From Candidatus Latescibacterota bacterium (GTDB taxonomy: Bacteria > Latescibacterota > UBA2968 > UBA8231): DNA of 20,000 nt. The translations under genes and the position numbers were made by a program. Every line of letters starts with the position of its first letter. Position 1 is the first letter of the stretch. This document shows, in pieces, positions 1-15,837 of this stretch. A model generated the notes under the pieces. It worked only from the letters and a program-made list of their open reading frames with translations. It was not told where the DNA came from and ran no database searches. The stretch covers positions 2,840,305-2,860,304 of the forward strand of contig CBDCNM010000002.1 of the NCBI GenBank assembly GCA_965219385.1. The letters are read 5' to 3'.

Positions 1-32
1 CATGGTTCGTGCCGTATTCCAGGAGTACGAGT

Positions 33-426
33 TCAGGTTCGCCTGTCCTCGGCATCCGCCCGCCTCCGCAACTGCCCGAGGCGGCGCCCCAGCTTCTCCA
101 CTTCTTCTTCAATCAACCTCAATTCGTCGTCGACGCTTATCTCGCCGTTCAGGGCCATTGTGCTTGCGCCACTCTTCGGCCTCGCGCTCGGCCTGGGCCT
201 CGTCCATCGAGTTGATGATCACGCCGATGAACAGATTCAGCATGATCACGGTGCCCGGCAGCACGAAGGACACGAAGTAGAGAGCCCCGCCGAGGACCGG
301 CAGCCCCTTTGAGGCCTGGCGCAACGGGGCCAGGGCAAAATCCTGGTAGCCCGGGTAGGCATCGCTGCCGTACATCTGAATGTACATCACGTCGGTCCAA
401 TCCTCCAGGGGCACCACCCGGAACAT
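33..426 (-). pseudogene. Remnant of a bacterial voltage-gated Na/Ca channel (BacNav-like): pore helix, selectivity filter, S6 and C-terminal coiled coil only
   Basis: ORF 109-426 reads [14 protein letters not shown]...[30 protein letters not shown], matching the BacNav pore/S6 pattern (F..vTLExW...NLFIGVIVN.M). S1-S5 are absent because the sequence stops at the inverted repeat at 429. Removing one base at 158/159 continues the protein as [41 protein letters not shown] (stop at 33-35), a typical coiled-coil tail. Confidence 0.85.
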
Positions 427-428
427 TA

Positions 429-454
429 AGAAGCCGTCTTAAAATTCCGGGTGC
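429..454 (+). repeat. Left copy of 26-bp inverted repeat (IS/MITE terminal-inverted-repeat-like)
   Basis: AGAAGCCGTCTTAAAATTCCGGGTGC; the first 20 bp are an exact reverse complement of 19520-19539, and 25/26 match 19514-19539. Confidence 0.9.
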
Positions 455-459
455 ACACC

Positions 460-1164
460 TCATGCGAACCGCTCCCGCTGCTGCAGGCGCAGCAATCCGA
501 ATAGCGTCGCCAGCACGGCCCCGACCAGCAGGTATGCCCGGTTGTAGAACGTCGTCGCTTGCTGGACGATGGATTCGTAGGCTTCCACCTGCGCGAAGGG
601 ATTGTGGTACAGGTTCCAGCGGCTGCCCTCCAGAGGCTCCGTCAGCATCCAGAAAAACAAGCCCAGGACCAGCAACAGAGCGGCGGTGCCGTTGCCGCTG
701 CGGATTAGCGTCGCCAGCATGAAGCCCAGGCTGCTCAGGAAGGAGATGGGAAACATTAGATGGAAGACCATGGACCACACCGAGAAGTCGGCCAGGGCCA
801 TCCTGCACAGGGCCGCCAGCAGCAGCAACATAGCGGCGATCACCAGCTGCTGCACGCCGTGGCGGGCCAGCCACACTTTGTAGCGGTAGTCGGGAATAGC
901 GAAAAGCGTCTCCAGCATGCGACCGTCCACATCGCTCTGCACACAGTAAGCCGACGGGTAGAACATCAGCAGCACCCCCGGCACCAGCAGGAAGTAGTAG
1001 ACTAGGGCCGCGCTCGGTGGCACCTCTTCCTGGGCCGTGTGCACGACGACTACGGTGCAGAAGATGAGCAGCGCCAGCAGCAGGAAGTAGATGAACTTGC
1101 CGGCGAACACCTGGCTGGCACTATAGCGCGCGAAGGCGGCCATACTCCGGAACCGGGCCAGCAT
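460..1164 (-). CDS. Small ABC-2-type permease / membrane subunit (234 aa, ~6 hydrophobic segments)
   Basis: Multiple TM stretches; DVDGRMLETLFAIP resembles the ABC-2 coupling helix (E.E.GTLE.LL..P); start overlaps the upstream stop (TGATG at 1166-1162). Confidence 0.8.
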   Translation of the reverse strand: MLARFRSMAAFARYSASQVFAGKFIYFLLLALLIFCTVVVVHTAQEEVPPSAALVYYFLLVPGVLLMFYPSAYCVQSDVDGRMLETLFAIPDYRYKVWLARHGVQQLVIAAMLLLLAALCRMALADFSVWSMVFHLMFPISFLSSLGFMLATLIRSGNGTAALLLVLGLFFWMLTEPLEGSRWNLYHNPFAQVEAYESIVQQATTFYNRAYLLVGAVLATLFGLLRLQQRERFA

Positions 1165-4100
1165 CAGGCCGGCCTCTCCAGCAGCCAGAGGTACGAGTCC
1201 TCCAGGGTCGGGGTCACTTCTTCGGCCTCGGGTAGGGGCTGCTCGTCCGCCAGGATGCGCACCCGGATGGATTCGCCGTCCCGCATGTGGTGCACGATCC
1301 GGGTGCGATGGCGCAACTCCTCCAGGCGTTCTTCGCTGATCCGTGCCTGCCAGACCGCACCCCTGGTCAGCTCCACCATCTCCCGCGGGCTGCCGTGGAA
1401 GCGGACCTGGCCCTGGCCCATGACGACCAGATGGTTACAGGAACTCGAAATATCCTCGATGATGTGGGTCGAGAAGATCACCACCCGGTTGCGGGCCAGT
1501 TCGGCCAGCAGGTTGCGGAAGCGGATGCGCTCGCGCGGATCCAGCCCCGCCGTGGGCTCGTCCACCAGCAGGATGCGGGGCAGGCGCAGGAGCGTCTGGG
1601 CGATCCCGACCCGTTGCTTCATCCCTCCCGAGAACCCGCCGATCTTGCTGTCCCCGCTCTCCTCGAGGTGCACCGACCGCAGGGCGCCCTCCACCACTTC
1701 CCGCCGCTCTCTGGAGTCCCACTGTCCCTTCAACAGCGCCTGGTAGTCCAGGAACTGGCGGGCGGTCATGTTCTCGTAGGTGCCAAACTCCTGGGGCAGG
1801 TAGCCGATCAAAGCCTGCAGCTCCTCCCGCTGTTGGGTCAGATCGATGCCGTTGATGCGCACCTTCCCCAGGCTCTGCTCCAGTATGCCGCAGACGATGC
1901 GCATCAGCGTGGTCTTACCGGCGCCATTGGGCCCCACCAGACCAAACATGCCGCTCTCGATCCTCAGGGACACTTGTTCCACGGCGGTGAATGGACGCTT
2001 GCGTTTGCCGATGAGGGGTAGCGCTCCTACCAGCAAATAGAAGGCGCGGCGGCTGCGCCGGAAGCGACCGGTTATGGCATCGACATTCACCACGCCGCTG
2101 TGCAACCACCGCACGCCCCGGTTTACCACTGCTCCGAGGTACCATACTGCCCCCGCTGTGATCACCAGAGGCATATCGTCCCCCCTGTTGCGGAACCACA
2201 ACACGTGCGCCAGGGGCAGCAGCCAGTAGCACAGGTGGTAGAGCAGACGTGTAGTGCGGTGCAGGAAGCCGGCTCCCCGCGGCAGCCAGATCCACGCCAG
2301 GCTCAGAACGTGGACGTAGAAGGCCACGGACAGGATGATGGTCCAGACCGCGCTCTCCTGGTACAGGTAGACGAAGTAGAAATGGAAGGCGAGCACGGGC
2401 AGTCGCCATGCCAGTGCGGCCCGGCGTCCACCCTGATTGTCGCCCGCGTCCGGCTGGTGCTGTGCCTGGCGCTCGCCGCGACCCCATTGCCGCGCGAAGC
2501 GGGAGCGCTCATCGTACACCTTGACCACATTATCGATCGAGATCTGCAGCGGCACCCCTTCCGGGATCAAAGCGGCCCGGCTGCGACGCAGACTCGACCG
2601 CGCGAACCAGGTGAACGCCGGTACCAGACCCAACAGGACGATGCCGTCGGCGAATTGCCAGAAGGTGGAGTCCACGTTGTGGTGTATCAGGGCGGCGCCG
2701 GCGGCCAGGATCGCCAACTGCACCAGATTGATCCACCAGTCCAGCTGCCCCAACCACGCCACAGCCGTGGCCAGTCCGAAGTAAACCGTTGGCACCAGCA
2801 CCAGGGTAAAAACCGTCCCCGCCACCAGGCCGCCGATCACGGCGATGGCGAAGGGGGCGCCAATGGTGGCCACGTACTCGGCCTTGCCCATGGCCAGGGG
2901 CAGCATGGCCAGGATGGTAGACAGGGCCGTGATCAGAATCGGCCGCACCCTGACCTGCCCGGCCGCCAGTAGCGCCCGTCCCAACCGGTACCCCTGCCGT
3001 TGCAGCAGGCGGGCGTAGTCGATCAGCATGATGCCGTTGTTGACCACCACGCCCAGGAGGATGAGGAAGCCCACCAAGGCATTGGCGTTGAAGAGCGAGT
3101 TGCCCGTCAGGATCAGGCCCCACAGGGCGCCGATGGTGGCCAGCGGCAGGGTTATCATCATGGCCAGAGGGGCCACCAGAGACTCGAATACCGCGGCCAG
3201 GATCATGTAAATGAGCACCACCGACGCCCCGATCAGGAAGTAAAAGGCGGAAAGGTCGGTCTCGTCATGCACTACCTCGATTGACATTCCCGGCGGCAGG
3301 GACAGATCGGCGGCCAGCCGATCCACGGCCGCCCGGGCCTCGTCCAGCAGGTCGTTCGTCCCGGTGATTTCCTCCTCGAACTGGTAGGTCAGCTCTGCTT
3401 CCCTTTGCTGGTTCACCCGGTTGAAACCGCCGTATCCTTGCGCATAGACCAGGTCGGCCAGCTGCAGCAAGGGCACGTCACCCCCGTCCACCGTGCCGAC
3501 CCGCAAGCGGCGCAAATCTTCGATCCGGCGCTGCGGATATCCCGTGCTCGTCAACGCCACCTTGATCGGGTCGGACCCTCTCATCACCTGGACCGAAGGG
3601 TTCAACTGGGGCTGGAAGCCCGACAGGGCCGCGGCGATCGCGTTAGGCTGGACCCCGAAGTGGGATATGGCCGTCCGGTCGATCAGTAGATCGATTTCCG
3701 GTTGGCCCCGATTGATACCTGGCGACGAATAGCGGACCCCGGGTTGCCGCTCCAGATTGTAGCGGATGTCGTCGATGATGGTCTTCACCAGATCCATACT
3801 ACTGCCGCGCACGACGATGCGCTCGCTCGCCTCGCCAATTCCGAGCAGGCGTTGAAAGGCCCGGCCACCACCTGGACCACCGCCCCTGCCGCCGTAGCGC
3901 GGGTCGGTCCGCGGCTGTTCCCAGGAGAGATGAACCTGCGGGAAGGCTTTCCTGAGCCGGTCGTAGATCTCCTTCTTGATCGCCGCCAGGTTGCGCCGGG
4001 CGATTTTCTGGTAGCCCTCCTTTAATTCGAAAGCCAGCCGTAGGTTGTCGACTTCGATGTCGATGCGTCGCTTTGCCACCTCCTCGATGTCCGCCAGACG

Positions 4101-5846
4101 CGCGTCCATTCTCCGGGCCTGTTCATCGGCCAGCTGCAGGGTCATTCCTCCGGGTATGGCAGCATACAGATCGAAGCTGGTCAGCTCTACTTCCACGGGG
4201 CTGTTGACGCTGACCGTCAGGCTCAGAAGAAGGCTGACGAGGAAAGCGACCACTGCAATGCCCGTGGTCCGTCCCGGAAAACGCATGCACGACTTGAGCA
4301 GCAGCGAGTAGATCTGCACCATGCGGTGACGCTGCGACACGGCGTTGAAGGTGCGCGACCGGTCGGTTGGGCGGCGGGCGAACAAGCGATAGGTGAACAC
4401 CGGGATCAGCAGCATGGCCACCAGCAGCGATACCAGCAAGGTGCAGATGATGGATACTCCGACCTGCTGTCCCAGGAGGCGCACCAGAAAATTGTCGGAG
4501 AAGACGAAGGGGAGAAACACGCACACCGTGGTCAGCGTCGTCGCCAACACCGCCCGCCACACCTGCGCTACCCCGGTGACCACCGCCTCGTGTGCCTGGC
4601 GCCCACGCCCCAGCTGCCGGTAGATATTTTCCAGCACCACAATGCTGTTGTCCAGCAGCATGCCCACGGCTATGGCGATGCCCACCAGGGATAGCATGTT
4701 GAGGCTTATGTCGAAGGCGTAGAACAGGTTCATGGCGATCAGCATTGAAATCGGTATGGCCGCCGCCACGATCGCCACCAGGGGCAGATTGCGCAGGAAC
4801 ACCCAGAGGATGCCGACCGCCAGCAGCCCGCCCACCACGGCCAGCGCCTTGATATCGCCGATGTTTTCCTCGATCGCCTCGGCGGTGTCGCTCTGGATCA
4901 CCAGTTCGACGCCGTCCGGATCCAGGTTCCGATTCAACTCGTCCACCACCTTGCGCGTCGCCCGCGACAGGGCCAGCAGGTTGGCCTGGCGGTCGCTGAC
5001 CAGGGTGATGGAGACCGCTTCCATACCGTTGATGCGGGCGATGCTCTCGCGCAGGGCCCCCCCCTCCACCACGGTGGCGATCTGCCCCAGCCACAGCGGA
5101 CCCTCGGCGCGAACGATGGTCTCTTTTAGGTCCTCTATGGAGCGCAGATCGCTGGAAAGGTTGACGAAGATCCGCTGGCCCCCGTTCTCCACCTGACCCA
5201 GGAAGCGACGGGGGCGAGAGGATTGGGAGATCCGCGTCTCTACCTCGGCCAGGGTCAGGCCGTGGCTGTGCATGATTTCTTCGCTGAGCAGCACCTCCAC
5301 CAGCTGCTGGCGACCCCCGTACACCGCCACGTTCGCCATCCCTTCCACGCTTTGCAGATCCGGCACTACCTTTTCGTCCACCACATTGCGAATCTGATCC
5401 AGGGTACCCACCCCGCGGGCCTGCAGCGACATGAACTGACTGGCCAGTTGTTCGGTGTCGATCTTGAGCACCATGGCCCGGAAATCATCGCCCAGCTGGG
5501 CCCGGGTGGCGGCGACGCGTTCCTCCAGCTTGAGGAAGGCGTACTGCTGAGCGCTCCGCCGGGTGTAATAGACGAACAGAGTCGCCTGCTGCTGTTCTAT
5601 GTACGACTCGATCCTTTCTATGTCCTCCAGACCCGCGATGGCGCTCTCCAGAGGGATCACCGCCTGCCGTTCGATGAAGTGCGGGTCGGCGTCGCGAGCG
5701 CTCTGTACCTGCACCACGAGCATGGGCAGCTCCGCGGCGGGGATGAGCTCCACGGCCAGACGGTCGTAGGACACCGCCCCCAGCAGGCATCCTCCGATCA
5801 GGAGCATGCACACCAGCACCGGTCTGTGGATGAAGAAGGCAATCAC
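1164..5846 (-). CDS. AcrB/AcrD/AcrF-family RND permease fused to a C-terminal ABC ATPase (1560 aa)
   Basis: One uninterrupted ORF. RND motifs: FFIHRPV, GMLLDNSIVVLENI (TM4), YMILAAVFES, GVVVNNGIMLID (TM10), RVRPILIT (TM11). ABC motifs: GPNGAGKT (1911-1934), GYLPQ, FSGGMKQR, ILLVDEPT, STH. GTG start 13 nt after the upstream RND stop. Confidence 0.93.
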   Translation of the reverse strand: MIAFFIHRPVLVCMLLIGGCLLGAVSYDRLAVELIPAAELPMLVVQVQSARDADPHFIERQAVIPLESAIAGLEDIERIESYIEQQQATLFVYYTRRSAQQYAFLKLEERVAATRAQLGDDFRAMVLKIDTEQLASQFMSLQARGVGTLDQIRNVVDEKVVPDLQSVEGMANVAVYGGRQQLVEVLLSEEIMHSHGLTLAEVETRISQSSRPRRFLGQVENGGQRIFVNLSSDLRSIEDLKETIVRAEGPLWLGQIATVVEGGALRESIARINGMEAVSITLVSDRQANLLALSRATRKVVDELNRNLDPDGVELVIQSDTAEAIEENIGDIKALAVVGGLLAVGILWVFLRNLPLVAIVAAAIPISMLIAMNLFYAFDISLNMLSLVGIAIAVGMLLDNSIVVLENIYRQLGRGRQAHEAVVTGVAQVWRAVLATTLTTVCVFLPFVFSDNFLVRLLGQQVGVSIICTLLVSLLVAMLLIPVFTYRLFARRPTDRSRTFNAVSQRHRMVQIYSLLLKSCMRFPGRTTGIAVVAFLVSLLLSLTVSVNSPVEVELTSFDLYAAIPGGMTLQLADEQARRMDARLADIEEVAKRRIDIEVDNLRLAFELKEGYQKIARRNLAAIKKEIYDRLRKAFPQVHLSWEQPRTDPRYGGRGGGPGGGRAFQRLLGIGEASERIVVRGSSMDLVKTIIDDIRYNLERQPGVRYSSPGINRGQPEIDLLIDRTAISHFGVQPNAIAAALSGFQPQLNPSVQVMRGSDPIKVALTSTGYPQRRIEDLRRLRVGTVDGGDVPLLQLADLVYAQGYGGFNRVNQQREAELTYQFEEEITGTNDLLDEARAAVDRLAADLSLPPGMSIEVVHDETDLSAFYFLIGASVVLIYMILAAVFESLVAPLAMMITLPLATIGALWGLILTGNSLFNANALVGFLILLGVVVNNGIMLIDYARLLQRQGYRLGRALLAAGQVRVRPILITALSTILAMLPLAMGKAEYVATIGAPFAIAVIGGLVAGTVFTLVLVPTVYFGLATAVAWLGQLDWWINLVQLAILAAGAALIHHNVDSTFWQFADGIVLLGLVPAFTWFARSSLRRSRAALIPEGVPLQISIDNVVKVYDERSRFARQWGRGERQAQHQPDAGDNQGGRRAALAWRLPVLAFHFYFVYLYQESAVWTIILSVAFYVHVLSLAWIWLPRGAGFLHRTTRLLYHLCYWLLPLAHVLWFRNRGDDMPLVITAGAVWYLGAVVNRGVRWLHSGVVNVDAITGRFRRSRRAFYLLVGALPLIGKRKRPFTAVEQVSLRIESGMFGLVGPNGAGKTTLMRIVCGILEQSLGKVRINGIDLTQQREELQALIGYLPQEFGTYENMTARQFLDYQALLKGQWDSRERREVVEGALRSVHLEESGDSKIGGFSGGMKQRVGIAQTLLRLPRILLVDEPTAGLDPRERIRFRNLLAELARNRVVIFSTHIIEDISSSCNHLVVMGQGQVRFHGSPREMVELTRGAVWQARISEERLEELRHRTRIVHHMRDGESIRVRILADEQPLPEAEEVTPTLEDSYLWLLERPA

Positions 5847-5859
5847 GATGGCGTCGTTC

Positions 5860-8800
5860 TCACATGGGTCTGGATTGCAGCCGGTCGCCGCGCGCCAGCA
5901 GGTGATAGGCGCAGGGGATCACGGCAAGCGTGAGGGCGGTGGAGGTGACAAGGCCACCGATCACGGCAACGGCCATGGGGGCGCGCAGCGCGGCGCCCTC
6001 CCCGGCGCCGATGGCCAGGGGCAAAAGCGCCAGCATGGTAGTCGCGCTGGTCATCGCGATCGGCCGGATGCGCGTCTGACCGGCGCCGAGAATGGCTTCC
6101 CGCAGCTCCTGCCCCGAGCGGCGGTTCTGATTGATGCGGTCCACCAGTATGATGGAGTCGTTGACGGCGATGCCGGCCAGCATGATCACCCCGATGAAGG
6201 ACATCACGTTGAGCGGCATCGACAAGGCCATGAGTCCAAGGACCGCTCCGACGCCCGCCAGCGGGATGGTCAACAGGATGACGAAGGGATGCACCAGGGA
6301 CTCGAACTGCGCCGCCATCACCATGTACACCATCACCACGGCCAGTATCAGGGCGAAAAGCAGGTTTTCGAAGGCATCCTGGCGCAGCTTTTCCTCGCCG
6401 GTCACCTCGTAGCCGTACTCGGGCGGCCACGCAATCGTGGCCAGTTCCGCCTCTACCTGGGCCGCGACCTGGTCGAAAGGCCGGTCTGAACTCAGGTGGG
6501 CGCTTACCGTGGACGTGCGCATCTGATTGTTCCGCGTTATCGCCCGGGGCGACAGGGAGGGAACCAGCCGCGCCACCTCGTCGAGGCGCACGCGTCGGCC
6601 CTCCGGCGCCTCCAGCATCACATTTTCCAGCTCCTGCAGCGACAGGCGCGGCCGTTGGATGACGATGTCGCTGTACTCGCCCAGCTGCTGAAGCTGCCCC
6701 GCCGCCTGCCCCGAAAGCAGGTGCTCCAGCTGGTTGCCTATGGCGTCGATCTGTATGGAGTGCTGCGCCGCACGGGTGCGGTCGATCTCCAGGTCTATCT
6801 GGGGGTGGCCCTCGCCCAGGCCGGTTTCGACGTTGGCGAGACCGTTCATCCCGGCCAGCCGCTCCTCCACCTGGCCGGCCAGCTCGGTGAGGATCTCCAG
6901 ATCCTGCCCCTTGATTTCTACCTGCAGCGGCGCCGCCGTGCGCCCGAGGCTGATCTCCAGGGCCGTCTCCTGCTGCACGAACCGCGCCTCCACATCCGGC
7001 AGCGCCTTTAGCTCCGCGCCCAGGGCGGCAATCAGCGCGGTCGGTGCCAGCGAACTGGCCGGCTCGAAGATGATGTGGATGGCGGCGCTGTTCTCATCCG
7101 CCAGCAGATCCCGCACGTCGGTGCTGCTCCCGGCGGGACCCACCCGCGCGTAGAGGTGTCGCAGGTGAGTGCCGAAGTTCTGCGTCAGGAAAGTTTCGAG
7201 GTTGCGGACCACACCCTCGGTGCGGTCCAGGTGCGTTCCCTCGGCCAGGGTCAGTTCTACCGACAGCTCACCGCGGCCGGTCCGCGGCATGAACTCGCTG
7301 CCCAGCATCGGCAGCAGCGCGGCCGTGCCGGCCACCAGAAGCAGGCCCGCAAGCAGCACCGGGATGCGGTGCTTCAGCAAGCCCTGCAACAGGCTGGCGT
7401 AGCGCGGAAAGTGGACGGCATTCACCGTTGCGCCGCGGCCCTTTCCGAGTAAACGCGAGCACAACATGGGGATGACGACCATGGCGACGAAGAGGGAGGA
7501 CAGCAGCGAGAACGCCACTGTCCACGCTTGTTCCCGGAAGAGTTCCCCGGCGGCGCCGTGGAGGTAGACGATGGGAAGGAAGACGACGATGGTGGTTGCC
7601 GTCGAGCTGGTGATCGCGCCGCCGACCTCGCCCGCGCCCAGCACCGCTGCGTCCTTCAGGGGGGCGCCGTCCTCCAGCTTTCTGAAGATGTTTTCCAACA
7701 CCACGATGGCGTTGTCCACCAGCATGCCGGCACCTAGGGCCAGACCGCCGAGGGTCATCAGGTTCAGCGACAGGTCGCCGAAGTACATCAGGTTGAAGGT
7801 AGCGACGATGGAAATGGGGATGGCGATGCTGACCACCGCCGTCACTCCGAGGCGTCGCAGGAACAGGAACAACACCAGCATCGCCAGGAAAATGCCGAGC
7901 AGTCCGGCCTGCTCTACCTCGGCGACCGCCGCCTCGATGAAGCGGGCCTGGTCCTGCACCACCTCGATCCGGTATCCCGGTAGCGTCCGTCGCAGCACCT
8001 CTAGCTGCTGGTGGATGCTGCCGGCCGCGTCAATGGTGTTGAAACGCGCCTCCTTGTATATCTCCAGGCCGATGCAGCGCCTCCCGTCCAGGCGCACCAC
8101 GTTCTCCGGCTCGCTTAGAATGGTGCGCACCTGGGCCACTTCGCGCAGAGGTACCGGGGTCTGCTCAACCGTGGGCGCGGCCGTTGTGGCACCCGTCCGG
8201 GCCGCTGTTTCCGGGGTCCTGGCGGCTACGATCAGATGGTTCAGTTCCTCCGGAGAGGCGAACTCCCCCACCCCTTTGATGAGGTAGCGGCGCCCCATCT
8301 CCACGATGGATCCCCCCACCGTGTTGCGGTTGGCATTCTCGATCGTCGACTTCAGCTGCTCGGCCGTAATGCCGTAGGCCTCCAGGGTGTAGGCATCGGT
8401 CCGCACTTCCACCTGGCGCCGCCGCTCCCCCACCAGTTCCACCGCCGCGACTCCCGGCAGCCGAATCAACTCGGTGCGAATGATGTTCTCCGCGGTCTGG
8501 CGCAGGGCGTCCAGACCGCTCACTTCCGGGTGGTAGAAGGCGGCCACCACCACCGGCCGGGCATTGGGATCGTGCTGGCTGACCGCGACCTCCTCCGCGT
8601 TCGAGCGCTGCGCCTGATCGGCCATCATCTTTTGCAGGTCCAGGAAAGCTTCGTCCATGTCGACCTGCCAGCCGTATTCAACCGCAATCAGGGCGCGTCC
8701 AGTCTGGGCGATGGAGTGCACATTCTCCACTCCGCGCCCGCGCGCGGCCACCGCCTCCAGACGGGAGACGAACTGCCGCTCCATCTCCTCCGGCGGCCGC

Positions 8801-8961
8801 TCCCCACCCTTCACCTCGATAAACAGTCGGGGATTGTCCAGCTCGGGGAACAGGTCCATCCCCAGGCGCTCGAAGGAGATGTATCCCAGCAGCAGGATCG
8901 CCAGGATCAACATCAGCACCGTGGTCGGGTAGCGAACCGCGAATCGCGCCAGTCCATGCAT
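5860..8961 (-). CDS. AcrB/AcrD/AcrF-family RND permease (1033 aa)
   Basis: FAVRYP N-terminus, GMLVDNAIVVLENI, VYMVMAAQFES, GIAVNDSIILVD, RIRPIAMT; canonical RND length; GGAGG upstream of the start. Confidence 0.95.
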   Translation of the reverse strand: MHGLARFAVRYPTTVLMLILAILLLGYISFERLGMDLFPELDNPRLFIEVKGGERPPEEMERQFVSRLEAVAARGRGVENVHSIAQTGRALIAVEYGWQVDMDEAFLDLQKMMADQAQRSNAEEVAVSQHDPNARPVVVAAFYHPEVSGLDALRQTAENIIRTELIRLPGVAAVELVGERRRQVEVRTDAYTLEAYGITAEQLKSTIENANRNTVGGSIVEMGRRYLIKGVGEFASPEELNHLIVAARTPETAARTGATTAAPTVEQTPVPLREVAQVRTILSEPENVVRLDGRRCIGLEIYKEARFNTIDAAGSIHQQLEVLRRTLPGYRIEVVQDQARFIEAAVAEVEQAGLLGIFLAMLVLFLFLRRLGVTAVVSIAIPISIVATFNLMYFGDLSLNLMTLGGLALGAGMLVDNAIVVLENIFRKLEDGAPLKDAAVLGAGEVGGAITSSTATTIVVFLPIVYLHGAAGELFREQAWTVAFSLLSSLFVAMVVIPMLCSRLLGKGRGATVNAVHFPRYASLLQGLLKHRIPVLLAGLLLVAGTAALLPMLGSEFMPRTGRGELSVELTLAEGTHLDRTEGVVRNLETFLTQNFGTHLRHLYARVGPAGSSTDVRDLLADENSAAIHIIFEPASSLAPTALIAALGAELKALPDVEARFVQQETALEISLGRTAAPLQVEIKGQDLEILTELAGQVEERLAGMNGLANVETGLGEGHPQIDLEIDRTRAAQHSIQIDAIGNQLEHLLSGQAAGQLQQLGEYSDIVIQRPRLSLQELENVMLEAPEGRRVRLDEVARLVPSLSPRAITRNNQMRTSTVSAHLSSDRPFDQVAAQVEAELATIAWPPEYGYEVTGEEKLRQDAFENLLFALILAVVMVYMVMAAQFESLVHPFVILLTIPLAGVGAVLGLMALSMPLNVMSFIGVIMLAGIAVNDSIILVDRINQNRRSGQELREAILGAGQTRIRPIAMTSATTMLALLPLAIGAGEGAALRAPMAVAVIGGLVTSTALTLAVIPCAYHLLARGDRLQSRPM

Positions 8962-8979
8962 GATTGCCTGTTGTGCCTC

Positions 8980-10056
8980 CTACCTTTCGGTCCCTGAAGT
9001 TCCCCTGGCTACCTTGACCTTGGAGCGGTTCCGCAGTGTTTCGAATCCCTCCACGACCAGCTGCTCGTCCACCTCCAGGCCACTGAGCACCTCGATTTCC
9101 AGGCGATTGCTCAATCCCGTCTCCAGCCGGCGCTCCAGAGCCAGTCCCTTCTCCACCACGAACACGCCCCTGTTGTCCCCCCGGTCGAGGACGACCTCCT
9201 TGGGGATCACCACGGCCGAGTCCTTGGCGGCCACCACGATGTCCACCTTCACGAACATGCCGGGACGGATCGCCAGCGAGTCGTTGGCGATGCTCAAGGT
9301 CGACTTGAACATGCGGCTCTCCTCGTCCAGCACGGGCGACACCTGCTCGATATGACCGATCAGGGTATCCACCGCCGCGGTGCCGTAGTGGGTCACCAGG
9401 GCTGTCTGCCCTGGCTGTACCCGGTTGATCTCCTTGCCCGGGAGGGACACTTCGGTGTAGAGCACGGCGTATTCCATGATCCGCCCGATCGGCCCCCCGG
9501 TTTCCAGCAGCTGCCCGGAGCTGTGGTGCTCCAGGTCTACCAGCACGCCGTCGAAGGGGGCGCGGACCTCGAGTTTGGCCAGCTGCAGCTCGGCATTCTC
9601 CAGACTGTAGCGCGCATCGATGAAAGCCCGCTCCGCCGCGGTGAGTTCCCGCAGGGTGATACCCCCCTTCTCGAATATGGCCTGCTCCTTCTCGTATTCC
9701 CGCAGCGCCGCGGTGAACGCCAGTTTCTTCGAGTCGATGCCGACCTGGTTCACCAGCTCCGGATTTTCCAGCATCGCGATCAGCTCGCCCTCCGGCACGT
9801 GATCCCCCATGGCGTAGGGTGCGCCGGTGCGCGGGTTGGCTTGCGGCTGGTACAGGCCCGCCTGCAGACACTGCAGCTGGGCCTCCCGCGTGGCCTGCGC
9901 CGTACTGGTGGCGGTCACGTATTCGGCGATCGGTCGTCGGGTGACCATCTCGACCCTCACCGGAATGGCGGATTCGATGTCGATCTGGGGGCCCTCTTCT
10001 TCACAGCTGCACAGCACTGCGGCCAACAGCGCGGCGGGAATCTGTCGAGGCTTCAT
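8980..10056 (-). CDS. RND periplasmic adaptor (membrane fusion protein), probable lipoprotein (358 aa)
   Basis: Lipobox-like LAAVLCS-C; helical hairpin followed by EVRAPFDGV; IRPGMFVKV; IPKEVV; EVLSGLEVDEQLVVEG; ATGA overlap with the TolC stop. Confidence 0.93.
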   Translation of the reverse strand: MKPRQIPAALLAAVLCSCEEEGPQIDIESAIPVRVEMVTRRPIAEYVTATSTAQATREAQLQCLQAGLYQPQANPRTGAPYAMGDHVPEGELIAMLENPELVNQVGIDSKKLAFTAALREYEKEQAIFEKGGITLRELTAAERAFIDARYSLENAELQLAKLEVRAPFDGVLVDLEHHSSGQLLETGGPIGRIMEYAVLYTEVSLPGKEINRVQPGQTALVTHYGTAAVDTLIGHIEQVSPVLDEESRMFKSTLSIANDSLAIRPGMFVKVDIVVAAKDSAVVIPKEVVLDRGDNRGVFVVEKGLALERRLETGLSNRLEIEVLSGLEVDEQLVVEGFETLRNRSKVKVARGTSGTER

Positions 10057-11561
10057 CGGTCGGTCTCCTGGTCCTGGCCGAACTCCTTGACGGGTTCGTC
10101 GCGGACGAAGTCGTACAGGGTGCGGATCTTGAGATTCAGGAGGGCGAGGCGGTAGTTGATCAGCACGCCGATCTGGTTGATCTGTTCCCGCGACAACTGG
10201 TTCTGGTAATCGGCGATGTCCTTCGACGACAGATCCCCGTTCCGGTAGCGCTCCAGGTTGATTTCGTAGGTCTGGCGGGCATTGATCACGTTCTTTTCGG
10301 CGATCTCGATGCGCGTTTTCTGGGACTGCAGATTCCGGTGCGCTTGGCGGATCTCGGCCGTGATGCGCTTGCGCTCCTCCGCGGCGGACAGCTCGGAGCG
10401 GGCCACTGACTCCTGGGCGGCGGCCATTCGATGTTGCTTCTCGCCCCAGTCGAACAGGGGCAGGTTGAAGGTCACGGTTACCCGCTGGTTGCGCGTGGGT
10501 TCGGCGTAGATGCGGTCGAGATTCTCGTCGGTGCCGATCAGGCCGAAGGTCAGATCCAGCGATCCCTTGAACTCGTTCTGTGCATCCGTGGTGATCAGGC
10601 CCTGCATGGCGTTCTCGATGGCGATGTCCCGCTGGCGTAGTTCCATCCGGTTTGCCAGGCCGTGGACCAGCGCCTGCTTCAGGTCCACCGCCACCAGTTC
10701 CTTGCGCACGTCCGCGGAAACCCTCAGGTCCGGATCCAGGGGCAGGCCCAGCAGGAGCTTGAAGTCGTCGAGGGCATTGGCGTACTGAAGCTGCACACTC
10801 TCCAGACTACCGCGGGCGTTGGCCCGCGTCAGGTCGGCCTGCAGCAACTGCTCCCTGGCGGTGATCCCCGCCCGCACCTTGCTCTCGATGATCTCGTAGC
10901 GCTCGGCGGCGTTCACCAGTTCCTCCCGGACGATGTCTACGTTGCGCTGCTTCAGGTACAGGTCCAGGAACAGCTGCGTTGCCTGGCTTTCGATCTGCAG
11001 CCGTTGCAAGGCGTAGCTCAGCTGCGCATTTTCCAGCGCCAGCTCCAGCTGCTTCAGGTTCAGCCTGGTGCGGTTGTAGGTGAACAACGGCTGGGAATAG
11101 CGCAGGAAAAGCTGGTTGTTGTAGGTTTGCCGCTCGTCCCCGCCCGCAAAGCTGCTGGACGACCGGCGCCAGTCCAGGGACTGGACCACGCTCAGGGTGC
11201 CGTCGGTGCGTTCGAGTGGCTGCTGGATGGTAAACGCGGCGCCCAGGTGCGTCTGCTCCTGGGTGTTGTATTGCGACGCCAGGGGGCTGAAGACCCGGTC
11301 TTTGGAAAACTCGTAGGGCGTCACGGTCAGGCCGAACCGGGACTTGAGCGCCGCGCGCTGCGCCTCCAGGTTGCGGCGGCTGATCTCCAGGTTGTGCCGC
11401 GCCTCCTGGATCGCCGGGCTGCGGTCGAAGGCGATCTCCAGGGCCTGGTCGAGCACCAGGGGCTCGGCCCTGGCGGCCCCTGCCATCAGCAAGCCTGCGG
11501 CAAAGGCACCGGCCAACCACCGCCGGCGTCGATCCTCTCTTCTATCCCGTCGTCGGTTCAT
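10053..11561 (-). CDS. TolC-family outer membrane efflux protein (502 aa)
   Basis: Start moved to the ATG at 11561 (ATGA overlap with the upstream stop; GGAG upstream). Signal peptide ending AARA|E; LDQALEIAF, YSQPLF, FNLPLFDWG and ERYRNG are OEP-repeat hallmarks. Confidence 0.92.
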   Translation of the reverse strand: MNRRRDRREDRRRRWLAGAFAAGLLMAGAARAEPLVLDQALEIAFDRSPAIQEARHNLEISRRNLEAQRAALKSRFGLTVTPYEFSKDRVFSPLASQYNTQEQTHLGAAFTIQQPLERTDGTLSVVQSLDWRRSSSSFAGGDERQTYNNQLFLRYSQPLFTYNRTRLNLKQLELALENAQLSYALQRLQIESQATQLFLDLYLKQRNVDIVREELVNAAERYEIIESKVRAGITAREQLLQADLTRANARGSLESVQLQYANALDDFKLLLGLPLDPDLRVSADVRKELVAVDLKQALVHGLANRMELRQRDIAIENAMQGLITTDAQNEFKGSLDLTFGLIGTDENLDRIYAEPTRNQRVTVTFNLPLFDWGEKQHRMAAAQESVARSELSAAEERKRITAEIRQAHRNLQSQKTRIEIAEKNVINARQTYEINLERYRNGDLSSKDIADYQNQLSREQINQIGVLINYRLALLNLKIRTLYDFVRDEPVKEFGQDQETDR

Positions 11562-14500
11562 GGTCTCTCCACCCATTTCACCGCGTCGGCGATTACCATG
11601 CGTCCCTGGCCGCGGTCCGTCATCTCCACGTGGGCCGGCCCGGCGGCCAGTCGGTAGGTGCCGATGTGGTTCCAGCCCTCCTCGACCTGTGCCAGGTCCA
11701 GCTCTACGGGCTCGACGCCGCCATCGTGATAGACCTGGAGATTCACGCTGCTGTCGTTCGTCCAGCGTCTCCGCCGCTGTCGTCCATGTCGCATCTGATT
11801 CAACGGCCCGCAGTAGAAGTAGAGCTCGTAGTTGCCGGCGCGATTGACCTGGGTCCGCCAGGAGACGATGCTGCGGCCGTCGCTCGTCCGCTTGTAGTAC
11901 CCGGAGAGTACGAACTGCCCGTAGAACCCGCGGTCGGTGGTCGGCTGCCAGGTGCCGGGTGGGTCCCACCAGCTCAGACCCACGTACGGCACCTCCCGCG
12001 CGCCCAGATCCAAAAGGTCGACCAGCATCCGCCGCAGCCAGTTGGCCTGCTCCGGTTCGTGCACCAGAAACCCCTCGTCTTCGTTGTCCACCACGTATTC
12101 CACGACCTCGGCAGGGGCGTCATCGGCCAGGAGCATGGCCTCCTCGCCCGCGAACGGCCGGGCCCGGCGACGCAGCTTCTGCTCGGCAAAGGGGATGTTG
12201 ATCACCGCCGGGATATTGCGGGAAACGTAGGTGTCCAGCACCATCTCGGCCGCGGGTCGGTCCAGGAGAATGCCGATCTTCACACGAGTTCCGGCCGGCA
12301 TCGAAACCACCTGCTCATACCCTTGCGGCCGCCCCCGCTGGAGCCACCAGGGCTCGATCTTGGTCTCGCGGTAGCGGAAGCCGACCTCCACCAGCCCATC
12401 CACCTCGGTCGGGTTGCTCACCTCCATTTCCACCTGGGTCCTGGTGCGCTCCCCGTCGAGCACCAGATACGATTCGACGCTCTCTACCTCGTACCCGGGC
12501 AGCTCCGAAGATCGATACCAGCGCTCGATCAACGGCTCGGGTTCGCGGCTGCTGAACCCGGTTATCAACTGGATCAGTTCTTGCTCTGACAGGCCCCGGT
12601 AACGGCTGTCCGTTGCGGCCGCTGTCAGGCGCGCGCCAAACGCCTCGAACCCCAGTTCGGCCGCGAACAGCTGCAAAAGATGGCGCCCCTTGGCATGGAG
12701 CGCCGCCTCGCGGATGTGCCGCGGGCGCTCCGTATCCTGCAGCAGTTCGGCCAATCCCACCTCCTTGAGCGCCAGGTTGGCCTCTTCAGTAGTGGTCAGG
12801 CCGCTCCACGCGCCGAGGCGGGTTTTGGGCGGTGCCACTCGTTCCCTGAAATAGGATTCGAAGGCGTAGTTGAGCACCGGCCAGCGGCTTGACGACAGGT
12901 GGGTGACATACGAAAGGAAGCAGGGCAACACCTTGTAGCGGGTTTCCAGGTTCGGATTTTGGTCGATCTGGCTCCAGCGCGGCGCCTGCAGTCCCAGCAG
13001 GTCCAGGGTCGCGAAGGTGCGGACGTAGTCGCTCTGCAGGGCCTCGGCCGACTCGACTTGGTTGGCCCGTTCCTGGCTGTAGCGAGCCCTGCGTTTCTGC
13101 CGCCGGAAGTCGCAGCCCTCGCACAGGGTGCCCATTTCGGGCAGGAACACCAACTCCGGCTGCACCGACTCCTGAGCGACCGTCCACAGGCGATGGTAGG
13201 CGAAAAACTGGATGGGCGCCTCGACCAGGGAGAACCGTGGGTGCGGGTATTCCATCCCCAGCGCCACCTCGTATTCGTTTCTCAGCTCCGCGATCAACCC
13301 GGGCAGGGCCCCGGTCACCGAGTCCAGGTAGGCGTCGAAGTAGTTGTGCCCCGGATGGATGGCAAGGGTGTAGGTGACCTCGTCCACCGTCAACTGCCGG
13401 ACTTCGTACTGGCCCATGGTCAGCGACACCTGGGGCAGTGGGTGATCCGTGATAAAGCGGTGCACCCCCGCCAGCGAGTCGACCTGGACCGCGCCCTGAG
13501 AGAATGCCGTCCAACCCTCCGGCACCGCCACCGAGATCTGGTAGCGGGCGTAGTCCCGGTGACCGGGCCTGGGGAAAGCGGTTCCCAGGGGCAACCCGCC
13601 CCGCGGGTACCAGCCGGCCTCCGGCGTCAGGTGCAGGAAGTCGGTTGTGACGGCGGCGTAGATCTTGGGAATGGTGTGGAGAAAAAACCGGTAGGCACCC
13701 TCGTAGCGCTCGCGTTCCACATCCAGGTAGCAGAAGCGTTGATCAATGCTACCGGCGTAGGCGATCCGCAGCCGACAGGTGTCTCCATTTGCCAGGGCGG
13801 CCGGCGGCGCCACGTGCAGTATGTGCTCGTTGCGACGGAAGGCGAGCGCCACCCCTTCCGCTGCTATTTCTTCAACCTTCAGACCAGGGTTCAGGGTGAA
13901 CACCAGGGTGTCCAGCGCCCCCTGGTTCCGGTTGGTCACCGCCAGGTCGACCGCCAGCGCCAGATGCTCTCCGGCGTGCTCCACCTCCAGGCGGCACTCC
14001 ACGACGGTGGGAGCGGGCCGTTCCGCTGCCGCGGCGCTCACTTGGCGCAGCTTCTCCCGGTACTCGAGCGCGGCCCATTGAGATCGCATGTAGGTAGTCC
14101 CCGTCCACGCAGCCCCTCCCAGGCAGGCGACCGCGGCCAGCCCGGTGGCGACGTTGGCCAGCTTCGACTGGGGCAGGCGGCTGCTCAACAGGGGCGTCAC
14201 TGCGATACAGGCCAGGCCGAAGAGCAGGTGGGTCGAACGGACCAGGAGGAGTTGCCGCTGGTTGCCCGCCCCCACGAAGTCCGACCACATCAGCGGGATG
14301 TGAAAAGCGAAAAAGTCGAAGAAATAGAAATAACGGTCGCCCAGCACCGTGAGGGAGAGGATGCCGAGCCCCACCAAAAGTACCAGCACCACGGCCTGGC
14401 TTCGCAGCAAGGTCACCAGCATCATCGCCAGACCGATGGTGAAGATCAGGGTGGGCAACGCTGCCGCCAGGACGGCCAGGGCGTAGGGCGGCCAGGTGAA

Positions 14501-14920
14501 CGGCGCCGGGGCGTAGAACCGGTGCAGCACCCCCGCCACCACCAGCACGGCCAGTTCGAGCGCCGCAAACACCGTCACCACCCCGAGGATCTTGCCGGCC
14601 ACGTAGTCCAGATTGGAGAAAGAGTGGACGAACAGGGTCTGCGCGGTGTCCTCGCGACGATCGCGCTTGACGAATTCCGTCGCCAGGAAAGCGGCCACCA
14701 CGCCCAGGTAGAGGTTGAGGAGCTTGACGTTGCCCAGCGGGAACCCGCCGGGCAGCGACACTAAGAGGTGGGGCCTATTCACGGCCGGCGAGCTCATGCC
14801 CAGGTTGTAGAAGAACAGGAAGAATACGGCCAGGCCGAGAGAGAGGCGGAAGGTCCACGAGCGCCACAGCAGACGGGCCTCACACAGGGCGATGGTTCCT
14901 ATGGCGCTCGGGTTGATCAC
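11558..14920 (-). CDS. Large ABC-2-type permease with M1-aminopeptidase-like extracytoplasmic region (no HExxH) and C-terminal golvesin/xanthan-lyase-like beta domain (~1120 aa)
   Basis: Likely GTG start at 14920, 8 nt after the ATPase stop (the longer ORF overlaps the ATPase by >200 nt). N-terminal TMs with RDRREDTAQTLFVHSFSNLDYVAGK coupling motif; M1-like FTLNPGLKV, IAYAG, GWYP, VPEGW, YPHPRFSLVE, RWY...LP; C-terminal VVDNED...GWNHIGTYRL...VIADAVKW. Confidence 0.8.
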   Translation of the reverse strand: MINPSAIGTIALCEARLLWRSWTFRLSLGLAVFFLFFYNLGMSSPAVNRPHLLVSLPGGFPLGNVKLLNLYLGVVAAFLATEFVKRDRREDTAQTLFVHSFSNLDYVAGKILGVVTVFAALELAVLVVAGVLHRFYAPAPFTWPPYALAVLAAALPTLIFTIGLAMMLVTLLRSQAVVLVLLVGLGILSLTVLGDRYFYFFDFFAFHIPLMWSDFVGAGNQRQLLLVRSTHLLFGLACIAVTPLLSSRLPQSKLANVATGLAAVACLGGAAWTGTTYMRSQWAALEYREKLRQVSAAAAERPAPTVVECRLEVEHAGEHLALAVDLAVTNRNQGALDTLVFTLNPGLKVEEIAAEGVALAFRRNEHILHVAPPAALANGDTCRLRIAYAGSIDQRFCYLDVERERYEGAYRFFLHTIPKIYAAVTTDFLHLTPEAGWYPRGGLPLGTAFPRPGHRDYARYQISVAVPEGWTAFSQGAVQVDSLAGVHRFITDHPLPQVSLTMGQYEVRQLTVDEVTYTLAIHPGHNYFDAYLDSVTGALPGLIAELRNEYEVALGMEYPHPRFSLVEAPIQFFAYHRLWTVAQESVQPELVFLPEMGTLCEGCDFRRQKRRARYSQERANQVESAEALQSDYVRTFATLDLLGLQAPRWSQIDQNPNLETRYKVLPCFLSYVTHLSSSRWPVLNYAFESYFRERVAPPKTRLGAWSGLTTTEEANLALKEVGLAELLQDTERPRHIREAALHAKGRHLLQLFAAELGFEAFGARLTAAATDSRYRGLSEQELIQLITGFSSREPEPLIERWYRSSELPGYEVESVESYLVLDGERTRTQVEMEVSNPTEVDGLVEVGFRYRETKIEPWWLQRGRPQGYEQVVSMPAGTRVKIGILLDRPAAEMVLDTYVSRNIPAVINIPFAEQKLRRRARPFAGEEAMLLADDAPAEVVEYVVDNEDEGFLVHEPEQANWLRRMLVDLLDLGAREVPYVGLSWWDPPGTWQPTTDRGFYGQFVLSGYYKRTSDGRSIVSWRTQVNRAGNYELYFYCGPLNQMRHGRQRRRRWTNDSSVNLQVYHDGGVEPVELDLAQVEEGWNHIGTYRLAAGPAHVEMTDRGQGRMVIADAVKWVERP

Positions 14921-14928
14921 GGCCGGCC

Positions 14929-15837
14929 TCAGCCCTCGAGCGTCCCTTCCAGGCTCATGTCCTGGCCGATCGACTGCATGTAGTGGATGTAGGCGTCCTC
15001 CAGGTTGGGGTCCAGCCTCTCGGCTCCCGTTCCTGGTGGGGCGTCGGCCACAAGGCGCACCTCGTAGCCCTCTGTGGCCGGCACCATCGATACCACCGGA
15101 TAGCGTTCCTTGAGGCCGTCCACATCTGCGTAGGTGGCCGCCATCTTCCACACTTTGCCCCTGGCCCTGGCCACCAGATCCGTGGGCGCGCCGTTGAAAA
15201 CGATCTCCCCCTCATGCAGCAACGCCAGATCTGTACAGGTGGATGAGATGTCGCCGACGATGTGGGTCGACAGAATGATCGCGATCTCCCCCCGAGCCAG
15301 GTCGGCCAGCAAATTGCGGAAGCGCAACCGCTCCTGCGGGTCCAACCCGACGGTGGGCTCGTCTACCACCATGATCGACGGATCGCCGATCAGGGTCTGG
15401 GCAATCCCGAGCCGTCGCTTCATGCCGCCCGACAGCTTGCTGGCCGACCGGTCTCTCACGTCGAACAAGCCGACCTGTTCCAGCAGCCGGTCCACCCTCT
15501 CCCGCCGCTCCCGCTTCCGCCGCAGACCAGCCAGCGCGGCGCCATAGTCCAAAAACTCCCAGGTCGCCAGCTTTGGAAAGCGGCTGAAGTCCTGGGAAAG
15601 GTAGCCGATCATCCGCCGGATCTGGGCCCGGTCCCGCCGCAGATCCAGGTCGTCGAACCGCACCTGGCCCGAAGTCGGCTTGAGCAAGGTCACCAGGATC
15701 TGCATCAGGGTGGTCTTGCCGGCGCCGTTGGGCCCCAGCAGACCGAACATGCCATTGCCGATCACCAGGTCCACCTCGCGCAGGGCATATTTTCCGTCTC
15801 GGTAGCGCTTGCTCAGCTGCTGGATTTCAATACGCAA
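14929..15837 (-). CDS. ABC transporter ATP-binding protein, ABC-2/drug-exporter type (302 aa)
   Basis: GPNGAGKT, LSGGMKRR, IMVVDEPT, STH, C-terminal PNLEDAY; TTG start with AGGAG upstream. Confidence 0.95.
   Translation of the reverse strand: MRIEIQQLSKRYRDGKYALREVDLVIGNGMFGLLGPNGAGKTTLMQILVTLLKPTSGQVRFDDLDLRRDRAQIRRMIGYLSQDFSRFPKLATWEFLDYGAALAGLRRKRERRERVDRLLEQVGLFDVRDRSASKLSGGMKRRLGIAQTLIGDPSIMVVDEPTVGLDPQERLRFRNLLADLARGEIAIILSTHIVGDISSTCTDLALLHEGEIVFNGAPTDLVARARGKVWKMAATYADVDGLKERYPVVSMVPATEGYEVRLVADAPPGTGAERLDPNLEDAYIHYMQSIGQDMSLEGTLEG

Follow-up and report, generated by a model that had tools for sequence, protein, structure and literature searches.

Tripartite pumps are normally classed by a single inner-membrane energiser, which may be an RND, an ABC or an MFS transporter. 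The locus analysed here raises the question of whether an RND pump and an ABC transporter can be parts of one export machine, and what such a machine would move.

Gene content and order of the locus

Seven open reading frames occupy positions 460..15837 of the window (the whole 20,000-nt stretch of DNA analysed), all on the minus strand and with gaps of at most 18 nt between adjacent genes. In operon order they encode an ABC ATPase, a large type V (ABC-2) permease, a TolC protein, an adaptor, RND1, an RND2-ATPase fusion, and a small permease. The features are as follows:

14929..15837, minus strand: free ABC ATPase, 302 aa, TTG start, DrrA/GldA/LanF-like group
11558..14920, minus strand: large permease, 1120 aa
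14084..14920, minus strand: membrane part of the large permease (residues 1-279), a type V TMD of six helices followed by a seventh out to the periplasm
12491..14047, minus strand: M1-aminopeptidase-like periplasmic region of the large permease (about residues 292-810), without HExxH zinc motif
11558..12109, minus strand: C-terminal domain of the large permease (about residues 938-1120), Golvesin_C / xanthan-lyase C-terminal / CBM35-like beta-sandwich
10053..11561, minus strand: TolC-family outer membrane factor, 502 aa, Pfam OEP 3.9e-42, start in an ATGA overlap
8980..10056, minus strand: RND-type periplasmic adaptor, 358 aa, TIGR01730 above cut-off
5860..8961, minus strand: RND1, stand-alone RND subunit, 1033 aa, ACR_tran 1e-216
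1164..5846, minus strand: RND2-ATPase fusion, 1560 aa, ACR_tran and ABC_tran in one chain
2769..5846, minus strand: RND2 core of the fusion (residues 1-1026), 12 helices, ACR_tran 1-1023
2598..2735, minus strand: two extra membrane helices of the fusion, TM13-14 (residues 1038-1083), from the AlphaFold model and hydropathy across 75 rows
2514..2543, minus strand: first NBD strand and adenine-stacking tyrosine of the fusion (residues 1102-1111), detached from the remaining NBD
1995..2513, minus strand: insert of about 170 residues in the fused NBD (residues 1112-1284), located where a gate helix would be, with a basic amphipathic helix and four membrane helices
1164..1994, minus strand: bulk of the second ABC ATPase, ABC_tran 1290-1433, catalytic motifs intact
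460..1164, minus strand: small six-helix permease, probable second type V TMD, 234 aa

The junctions, read from the sequence in gene order, are a gap of 8 nt, two ATGA overlaps, gaps of 18 and 13 nt, and a TGATG overlap. Pfam assigned ABC_tran to the first protein, a weak ABC2_membrane and Golvesin_C to the second, and then OEP, HlyD, ACR_tran, and ACR_tran with ABC_tran; the small permease had no match. The first-pass annotation had proposed a seven-gene operon over this span with a balanced list of ATPases, permeases, RND subunits, adaptor and TolC. Reading frames, strand, junctions and Pfam confirmed the operon, and the domains of the seven proteins bore out the list. The arrangement is, on the sequences compared, not a product of chance, the gene order repeating among relatives at 25-70% identity.

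At the operon ends neither a sigma-70-like promoter nor a clear terminator was found, and an Rfam search gave no match. A 26-nt inverted pair was considered as a mobile-element boundary and rejected, as the pair is a dispersed repeat present in 27 copies. Two metatranscriptome runs from a single sponge study, which share 6-7% of words, yielded exact contigs of only 159-410 nt at depth 2-5, scattered across the operon; because DNA carry-over is possible, these runs are no evidence of transcription or habitat.

Domain architecture of the ATPases, permeases and RND subunits

RND1 and RND2 are both full-length, each with 12 helices and a pair of periplasmic lobes (ACR_tran matched at 2-1020 and 1-1018 of 1021), and the nearest solved relative of RND1 is MdtB (9lyq, E 9e-93, alignment 4-1023). 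In an RND-only pump the RND is the sole energiser and its chain ends after helix 12, whereas in 74 full-length homologues the RND2 chain runs on past helix 12, with six more helices and an intact NBD. Both Pfam domains were present in all 120 homologues of 950-2710 aa among the matches listed. A frameshift or assembly artefact was rejected, since contigs of two other DNA runs cover the fusion without indels; one of these contigs spans window positions 1-6331 with 0 differences. A triple fusion with the small permease, considered on account of 1850-aa open frames, was also rejected, the small permease lying in another reading frame.

The NBDs of type V transporters are contiguous and soluble, whereas the fused NBD is split: as read from sequence and model, four membrane helices interrupt it after its first strand, at the site of the Wzt gate helix. 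That helix is described in PMC6379404 as an extension between NBD beta-strands 1 and 2, right after the adenine-stacking tyrosine. The AlphaFold model places a strand at residues 1102-1111, followed by the insert helices, and the residues K1109 and Y1111 of this strand are kept in 74/74 and 73/74 homologues. In structural alignments solved NBDs matched the fusion model from their own residue 1-5 onwards, beginning at this strand, and FtsE (8hd0_A) aligned over 212 of its 218 residues (rmsd 1.8, model span 256-639). The distance from the tyrosine to Walker A is 174-205 residues in the fusion (75 rows) and 21-23 in the free ATPase (72 rows). The insert helices follow a positive-inside pattern across the fusion rows, and mean identity in the insert is 0.35, against 0.65 in the NBD core. 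No membrane-split NBD of this layout was found in the solved structures or open-access literature searched.

Both ATPases are predicted to be catalytically intact, giving two competent NBDs. The Walker A and B, Q-loop, signature, D-loop and H-loop of the free ATPase are invariant in 71 homologues, and the catalytic motifs of the fused NBD are present in 72-74 of 74. NosF, an NBD with a C-terminal extension, was among the top structural NBD matches (Z 25.1). Fused NBDs form a single clade (support 96/88), and their tree and that of the free NBDs show the same two subclades; the fused NBD apparently has one origin.

On its modelled fold the large permease TMD is of type V, a class of six-helix TMDs marked by an elbow helix, re-entrant helices and a 6+6 arrangement. 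The nearest structures were NosY (7o0y_D, Z 18.3, rmsd 3.0, 225 of 267 aligned) and the peptide exporter PmtD (6xjh, Z 15.4), with an Rv1217c-type transporter also at 15.4. The seventh helix is hydrophobic in 92% of 77 rows and is preceded by a K/R-rich loop. For the periplasmic region that follows, the top Foldseek matches of a low-confidence model were M1 aminopeptidases (E 9e-13), and 6a8z matched residues 292-598 with a Z of 18.0; the N-terminal beta domain matches well, and the catalytic region of the model has a pLDDT <50. Profile searches returned tricorn F3 and 3cia, and Peptidase_M1 was matched by 14/25 large-permease rows. HExxH was found nowhere in the sequences of the homologues (0/77), and in the alignment with 3cia the Glu and Tyr positions that we take to be the third zinc ligand and the catalytic residue are replaced. 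An active M1 peptidase was rejected on the missing zinc motif (77/77), and the region is best described as a predicted pseudo-peptidase, with an M1 fold and a dead zinc site. The C-terminal domain scored above cut-off for PF25275, as it did in 25/25 rows, and its model matched 6f2p (Z 14.3) and CBM35 (Z about 10).

Small-permease homologues matched ABC2_membrane_3 at E<=0.01 in 24/70 cases, and the Atlas look-alikes were named ABC-2 permease (score 0.99); there was no PDB sequence match for the small permease. Predicted contact between the small permease and residues 1026-1558 of the fusion reached 0.42 vs. 0.00 for the best of 3 controls, graded as weak on a scale where 18/157 solved complexes and both passing mismatches scored <=0.60, and where NBD-TMD pairs may pass because the predictor has memorised such pairs. 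Agreement between runs was at least 86% of contacts, with a partner pLDDT of at least 68.

The proton relay of AcrB is described in PMC8277102 as D407, D408, K940, R971 and T978. The equivalents of D407, R971 and T978 are invariant here, the relay residues kept being D416, R964 and T971 in RND1 and D399, R966 and T973 in RND2 (the latter in 73-74 of 74). The equivalents of D408 and K940 are Asn in both subunits, and proton coupling is therefore assumed. Four RNDs of this genome without an ABC partner also show D-N / N-N, which marks the pattern as a trait of the family and not as a sign of uncoupling. The adaptor, encoded with the outer membrane factor alongside the RND genes, has an N-terminal lipobox-like cysteine and scored as RND-type, above cut-off for TIGR01730 and below it for the HlyD and MacA models (TIGR01843 51.7 bits, cut-off 208.65).

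A proposed two-engine cycle and known transporters

The best reading, to which we give about an even chance, is that every RND trimer has one ABC exporter attached and receives from it an amphipathic peptide or glycoconjugate. The seven products would work together as one exporter that spans the envelope and has two energisers. The large and small TMDs and the free and fused NBDs would assemble into a fully heteromeric type V ABC exporter, and since RND2 and one NBD share a chain, with this NBD pinned in the membrane by six extra helices, one ABC unit would be held against each RND heterotrimer. The latter would most simply consist of two RND1 and one RND2, capped by adaptor and TolC. ATP hydrolysis would either extract the amphipathic cargo from the inner membrane or carry it to the other side; in the periplasm the dead M1-peptidase and CBM35-like domains would bind it and bring it to the RND entrance, and the RND, driven by the proton gradient, would expel it through TolC. 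Peptides, lipopeptides and glyco-peptides are the likeliest cargo, and foreign or turnover material is more probable than something made by a linked biosynthetic cluster. Counting against the export reading, no gene for biosynthesis or for a peptide recurs beside the operon, the largest flanking family occurring in 10/100 loci.

A relay has long been discussed in which substrate reaches the periplasm by one transporter and is then cleared across the outer membrane by an RND, and the RND-ABC chain would be its physical version. As a conserved covalent chain it also breaks the single-energiser classification. We lean slightly towards seeing in it a new class of tripartite exporter, in which a type V ABC unit would be covalently built into an RND heterotrimer with the two engines in series, the ATP site would be wired to the membrane by four helices beside the adenine-binding loop, the dead-peptidase domain would deliver cargo to the RND, and ATP hydrolysis and proton flow would be coupled in one cycle. 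All parts come from known superfamilies and the novelty is one of architecture, judged against the open-access literature, in which no RND-ABC hybrid system was found described; the first-pass annotation had likewise called it a candidate uncharacterised machine.

MdtABC-TolC likewise has two RND paralogues, one adaptor and one outer membrane factor, and its RND paralogues stand at a ratio of 2:1. They are reported in PMC8277102 to form a heterotrimer. Unlike this operon, MdtABC-TolC has no ABC genes and no fused ATPase, and MdtB carries Asp-Asp in TM4 and Lys in TM10 where RND1 and RND2 have Asp-Asn and Asn. PmtABCD, LanFEG and YbhFSR-YbhG also combine two different six-helix permeases with DrrA/LanF-like ATPases, and Pmt and LanFEG function as heteromeric type V exporters, PmtD exporting peptides. 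YbhFSR is stated in PMC8277102 to work with an adaptor. All three lack fusion or gene linkage to an RND, a pseudo-peptidase domain and a membrane-split NBD. MacAB-TolC and HlyBD-TolC link an ABC ATPase to an adaptor and TolC, as here, but have type VII and type IV TMDs and no RND. None of the seven proteins matched MacB_PCD (the periplasmic core domain of MacB), FtsX (its four-helix TMD) or ABC_membrane (the type 1 secretion TMD, joined there to the N-terminal side of the NBD), and the TMD model is type V. The Wzt/TarH gate helix lies at the same NBD position as the insert, after the adenine-stacking tyrosine, but is one short cytosolic helix, compared with about 170 residues and four membrane helices here. 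A conceptual precedent is SecA-SecYEG-SecDF, in which an ATPase and a PMF-driven device of the RND superfamily act in series (PMC8277102), although SecA is not an ABC protein and there is no fusion, adaptor or TolC.

NosDFY shares with this operon the type V TMD fold, an NBD with a C-terminal extension and a large periplasmic partner domain. It has a homodimeric TMD and a separate periplasmic subunit, serves copper-site assembly, and, unlike this operon, has no RND and no TolC. Its mechanism inspires the strongest alternative, which we consider unlikely but worth weighing: the ABC half would carry no cargo across the inner membrane and would act as an ATP-driven loader or gate, moving the pseudo-peptidase domain to load or gate the RND with periplasmic peptide or protein, while the four helices pass the ATP cycle to the RND membrane domain. 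The best TMD match to NosY, the rank of NosF, the 840-residue periplasmic binding-type region and an RND relay without the Lys and second Asp of AcrB are consistent with this, as is the site of the insert, where the Wzt gate helix shifts about 8 A on ATP binding according to PMC6379404. However, the type V Z-scores are close to each other (18.3 for NosY, 15.4 for both PmtD and the Rv1217c type) and speak to fold, not function, and the low conservation of the insert suits an anchor better than a precise transducer.

Co-inheritance and distribution of the seven genes

Among loci picked by RND1 with enough DNA, 38/39 had all seven genes in order; in the one exception (L103) N gaps of the assembly bound the locus, and a lost ABC half was rejected as the explanation. 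Loci picked by the small permease were complete in 30/40 cases, with a contiguous fusion in 36/40. Co-conservation of ABC and RND genes, which the first-pass annotation had put forward for a gene-neighbourhood survey, thus held from both starting points. Its mention of unfused gene sets in Bacteroidota did not: RND and ATPase form one chain in all Bacteroidales loci examined whose DNA extends far enough, and no unfused set was found in these or in the 40 small-permease-picked loci. A distant unfused family may lie below the detection limit of a scan that scored at most two candidates per genome and had hits in 3/301. The operon is broken up in three genomes, each of which retains the displaced genes: one (G443) has all seven at four distant sites, with the fusion still one chain, and in two (G025, G032) the free ATPase lies 0.9-1.4 Mb off, with 84-85% identity. 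ABC and RND pairwise identities track each other (Spearman 0.85-0.97, 58 rows), as shared ancestry alone would make them do. The seven-gene set is, judging from these homologues, kept across several bacterial phyla.

These data bear on a second alternative, in which an ABC-2 exporter and an MdtABC-like pump serve the same stress or cargo class in parallel, exchanging no substrate, and the fusion co-localises them and fixes their ratio. Each half does have its own complete parts list. Stand-alone pairs of large permease and ATPase exist, and this genome has two-RND operons without ABC genes. Large-permease paralogues also occur without RND genes in four loci (L018, L020, L030, L158), which counts against the two-engine reading in that the large permease can exist outside the hybrid. 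We nevertheless regard the parallel arrangement as improbable: wherever the DNA is complete, RND2 orthologues were found only together with the ATPase, 52/53 linker-profile representatives of at least 300 aa have RND and/or ATPase sequence attached, and the elaborate split NBD is retained across phyla. Short linker-bearing proteins are mostly contig fragments whose clusters include full-length members; in two clusters (P0028, P0183) the chain is interrupted within the insert, with both pieces on one contig, probably by frameshift, because close relatives are whole.

Least probable of all is envelope trafficking or uptake, with a lipid, lipoprotein or glycoconjugate moved between membranes or a TolC-admitted ligand imported in place of toxic-peptide export: type V includes lipid floppases and importers (as listed in PMC8386196), the gate-helix position is the entry site of the lipid-linked glycan in Wzt (as described in PMC6379404), a CBM35-like domain is present, and carriage is near-universal in some genera (21/21, 15/15), but the RND subunits belong with the trimeric efflux proteins MdtB and AcrB, their adaptor and TolC are ordinary, and carriage is patchy (73/140 genomes of the own phylum, 41/301 in the order of genome G041). 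The operon, patchy overall, is therefore not essential.

Three features lay beyond the first-pass annotation, namely the splitting of the fused NBD by four membrane helices, the dead M1 domain with its CBM35-like companion, and a second clade in which the in-line TolC is absent, a point against the two-engine reading. A divergent TolC follows the small permease in loci L016, L024, L027 and L170. Cultured carriers of the operon, all non-pathogenic, include Prolixibacter bellariivorans, Maribellus luteus, Labilibacter sediminis and Marinifilum.

The operon and its fusion protein

Seven ORFs, all on the minus strand, occupied 460-15837 of the window, with successive junctions of 8, -4, -4, 18, 13 and -1 nt. 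Pfam and NCBIfam assigned the products to a free ABC ATPase, an ABC-2-like permease with a Golvesin_C match (the large permease), a TolC (OMF), an RND-type adaptor, an RND subunit (RND1), and a 1560-residue fusion in which RND (RND2) and ABC ATPase matches lie within a single chain. The last gene encodes a six-helix protein without family assignment in either database (the small permease). These results confirm the first-pass annotation, which had proposed a seven-gene hybrid ABC, RND and TolC operon joined by overlaps or gaps under 20 nt. The region was recovered without indels in contigs from two other DNA runs, and the fusion is therefore real. A search of the source genome (5.81 Mb, two contigs, GC about 60%) revealed one copy each of both permeases and of the linker between the RND2 core and the ATPase. 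Three genes identified by Pfam lie upstream of the operon, and these neighbours are not conserved:

15956-17638, minus strand, GHL10-like 560-aa protein
17926-18357, minus strand, glyoxalase/VOC protein
18412-19356, minus strand, 3-hydroxyacyl-CoA dehydrogenase

An inverted 26-nt intergenic repeat was present at window 429-454 and 19514-19539; 27 copies with at most 3 mismatches occur in the genome, some in hairpin pairs (REP-like), and 6 nt separate the small-permease stop from one downstream copy. Directly past the repeat begins a 105-aa fragment (109-426, minus strand) that matched only the C-terminal part of Ion_trans. It has two more partial copies elsewhere in the genome (73-87% identity) and is probably a truncated channel gene.

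In the fusion, a 12-helix RND core is followed by two helices, the first strand of the ATPase domain (NBD), about 170 residues of insert, and the remainder of the NBD. The first strand was recognized by K1109 (74/74 fusion rows) and Y1111 (73/74), and the distance from this Tyr to Walker A was 174-205 residues in 75 fusion rows versus 21-23 in 72 free-ATPase rows. Modelling of residues 846-1558 with AlphaFold (mean pLDDT 81, from 72 sequences) gave the order strand, short helices, four long helices, NBD. Known NBD structures superposed on it starting with their first residues at the detached strand; for FtsE, 212 of 218 residues were aligned at rmsd 1.8 across a 384-residue span of the model. 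The four insert helices show hydrophobic character in 61-92% of rows, with basic residues on alternate loops, in agreement with the positive-inside rule. Hydropathy and this pattern together give the fusion 18 membrane helices. All catalytic motifs were kept in both the free and the fused NBD. In a tree of 45 rows with long outgroup branches, from which the free ATPase of locus L022 was left out, the fused NBDs formed one clade (96/88) with the same two-subclade split as the free NBDs.

Co-conservation of the ABC and RND genes

Of 20 loci gathered through large-permease matches in 41 kin genomes, five were of the window type, four of them complete and one cut; 12 belonged to a second clade, and three had the permease and no RND genes. 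Second-clade loci had the same gene order at 25-55% identity and no TolC in line between permease and adaptor. A divergent TolC (~22% identity to that of the first type) was located 3' of the small permease in L016, L024, L027 and L170; in the other second-clade loci none was seen.

A second survey, with the RND1 alignment alone against species genomes, gave at least 562 relatives. Among the best 80, the closest named loci belonged to Latescibacterota/'Gemmatimonadetes' MAGs (65% identity), and the loci came, among others, from Zixibacteria, KSB1, Aminicenantes/Acidobacteriota, Krumholzibacteriota and many Bacteroidales, cultured species included. All seven genes were present in 44 of these 80. 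The set was complete in 38 of the 39 loci whose DNA extended 8.5 kb or more upstream and 7.5 kb or more downstream, the remaining 41 having too little DNA on one side; the lone exception (L103) is flanked by N gaps. Conversely, the small-permease profile matched 41 of 301 genomes in Prolixibacter's order, of which 40 loci were fetched (centre omitted). Thirty were complete, so the proposed co-conservation held from both directions, in sets that apparently share a few loci and contain kin genomes that are not independent. RND2, linker and ATPase were contiguous in 36 of the 40, and the suggestion that Bacteroidota carry unfused versions was therefore not borne out; in the rest the fusion was cut at a contig start (2) or end (1), or the small permease was an orphan (1).

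This orphan came from genome G443, where the operon is split into four parts, all within a single 4.08-Mb contig (loci L156, L157, L172 and L149/L151): ATPase with large permease; TolC, adaptor and RND1; the fusion alone; and the small permease alone. Every ORF is full length and the fusion is still fused. In two genomes of one genus (G025 and G032; operon loci L021 and L022) the free ATPase is outside the operon, kept 1.4 and 0.9 Mb away (L175 and L176, 84-85% identity). Such retention after loss of linkage, seen here in no more than two or three events, speaks for a mutual dependence of the parts.

The operon was patchily distributed (73 of 140 genomes of its own phylum), and the large permease was matched in 3 of 301 across Prolixibacter's phylum. 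Extra large-permease copies without RND genes were found at L018, L020, L030 and L158, those of L030 and L158 being split. The L018 copy is accompanied by an ATPase of its own, grouped in the tree with the operon free ATPases, and adjoins glycosyltransferase genes. L039 carries a tandem pair of large-permease genes, and its fusion is apparently broken inside the ATPase close to a contig end.

Relation to known systems

The hybrid operon resembles MdtABC-TolC on its RND side and PmtABCD, LanFEG and NosDFY on its ABC side, yet it misses defining features of each, as well as of MacAB and of type 1 secretion. No RND-ABC fusion was found in searches of open-access full text, nor in passages of the reviews PMC8277102 and PMC13328181, and database names for the fusion are automatic only ('AcrB/ABC-type ... 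ATPase subunit'). The RND-ABC architecture is real and ancient, and apparently undescribed so far; we consider an existing description unlikely.

The closest solved relative of RND1 is MdtB. Both RND1 and RND2 conserve the equivalents of AcrB D407, R971 and T978 and have Asn at the D408 and K940 positions (AcrB residues as given in PMC8277102). Four RNDs of the same genome without an ABC partner have the identical pattern, so it is a mark of the RND subfamily, and it neither proves nor denies proton coupling. Two further two-RND operons without ABC genes (C1:47287-56982 and C2:945055-953192 of this genome) each contain a long RND, of 1209 and 1270 aa.

Permeases, mechanism and cargo

The large-permease model was weak overall (pLDDT 57). 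In structure comparisons its first 250 residues matched type V membrane domains (TMDs; NosY, Z 18.3; PmtD, Z 15.4), residues 292-598 gave Z 18.0 with the N-terminal domain of M1 aminopeptidases, and residues 938-1120 resembled a CBM35-like sandwich, with Z 14.3 for xanthan lyase. A seventh helix places the part with the M1-like and CBM35-like matches in the periplasm. The M1-like region is a pseudo-peptidase: HExxH was absent from the whole length of all 77 large-permease sequences.

The small permease is ABC-2-like by weak family matches only. Its predicted complex with fusion residues 1026-1558 scored 0.42 (contact agreement at least 86%, partner pLDDT at least 68); the highest score among three controls was 0.00. 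This counts as a weak grade (0.60 or less), into which 18 of 157 solved complexes fell, as did both mismatched pairs that passed. NBD-TMD likeness could be the source of this score.

MdtB2C is a 2:1 RND heterotrimer, and this is the basis of the RND1/RND2 ratio we propose. All parts would be accounted for if a single type V transporter were built from the two TMDs and two NBDs and tethered by one RND2 per trimer. At about even confidence we favour a relay in series, in which substrate would pass from the ABC unit to the periplasmic binding domains, then to the RND and to TolC. It is possible, with distinctly lower probability, that the ABC half carries nothing itself and serves as an ATP-driven loader or gate. 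Parallel action of the two halves is improbable, and a role in envelope trafficking or import slightly more so.

The pseudo-peptidase and the likeness to PmtD point to a putatively peptide-like cargo, with a putative glycan part suggested by the CBM35-like domain. In the flanks of 100 loci no gene family occurred in more than 10, and none was biosynthetic; this speaks against a dedicated natural-product exporter. In 10 Prolixibacteraceae-type loci (including L046, L053, L078, L081, L082, L089, L093, L101 and L106) a 190-aa protein that bears a type IX secretion C-terminal-like domain, and is sometimes doubled, was seen upstream of the operon.
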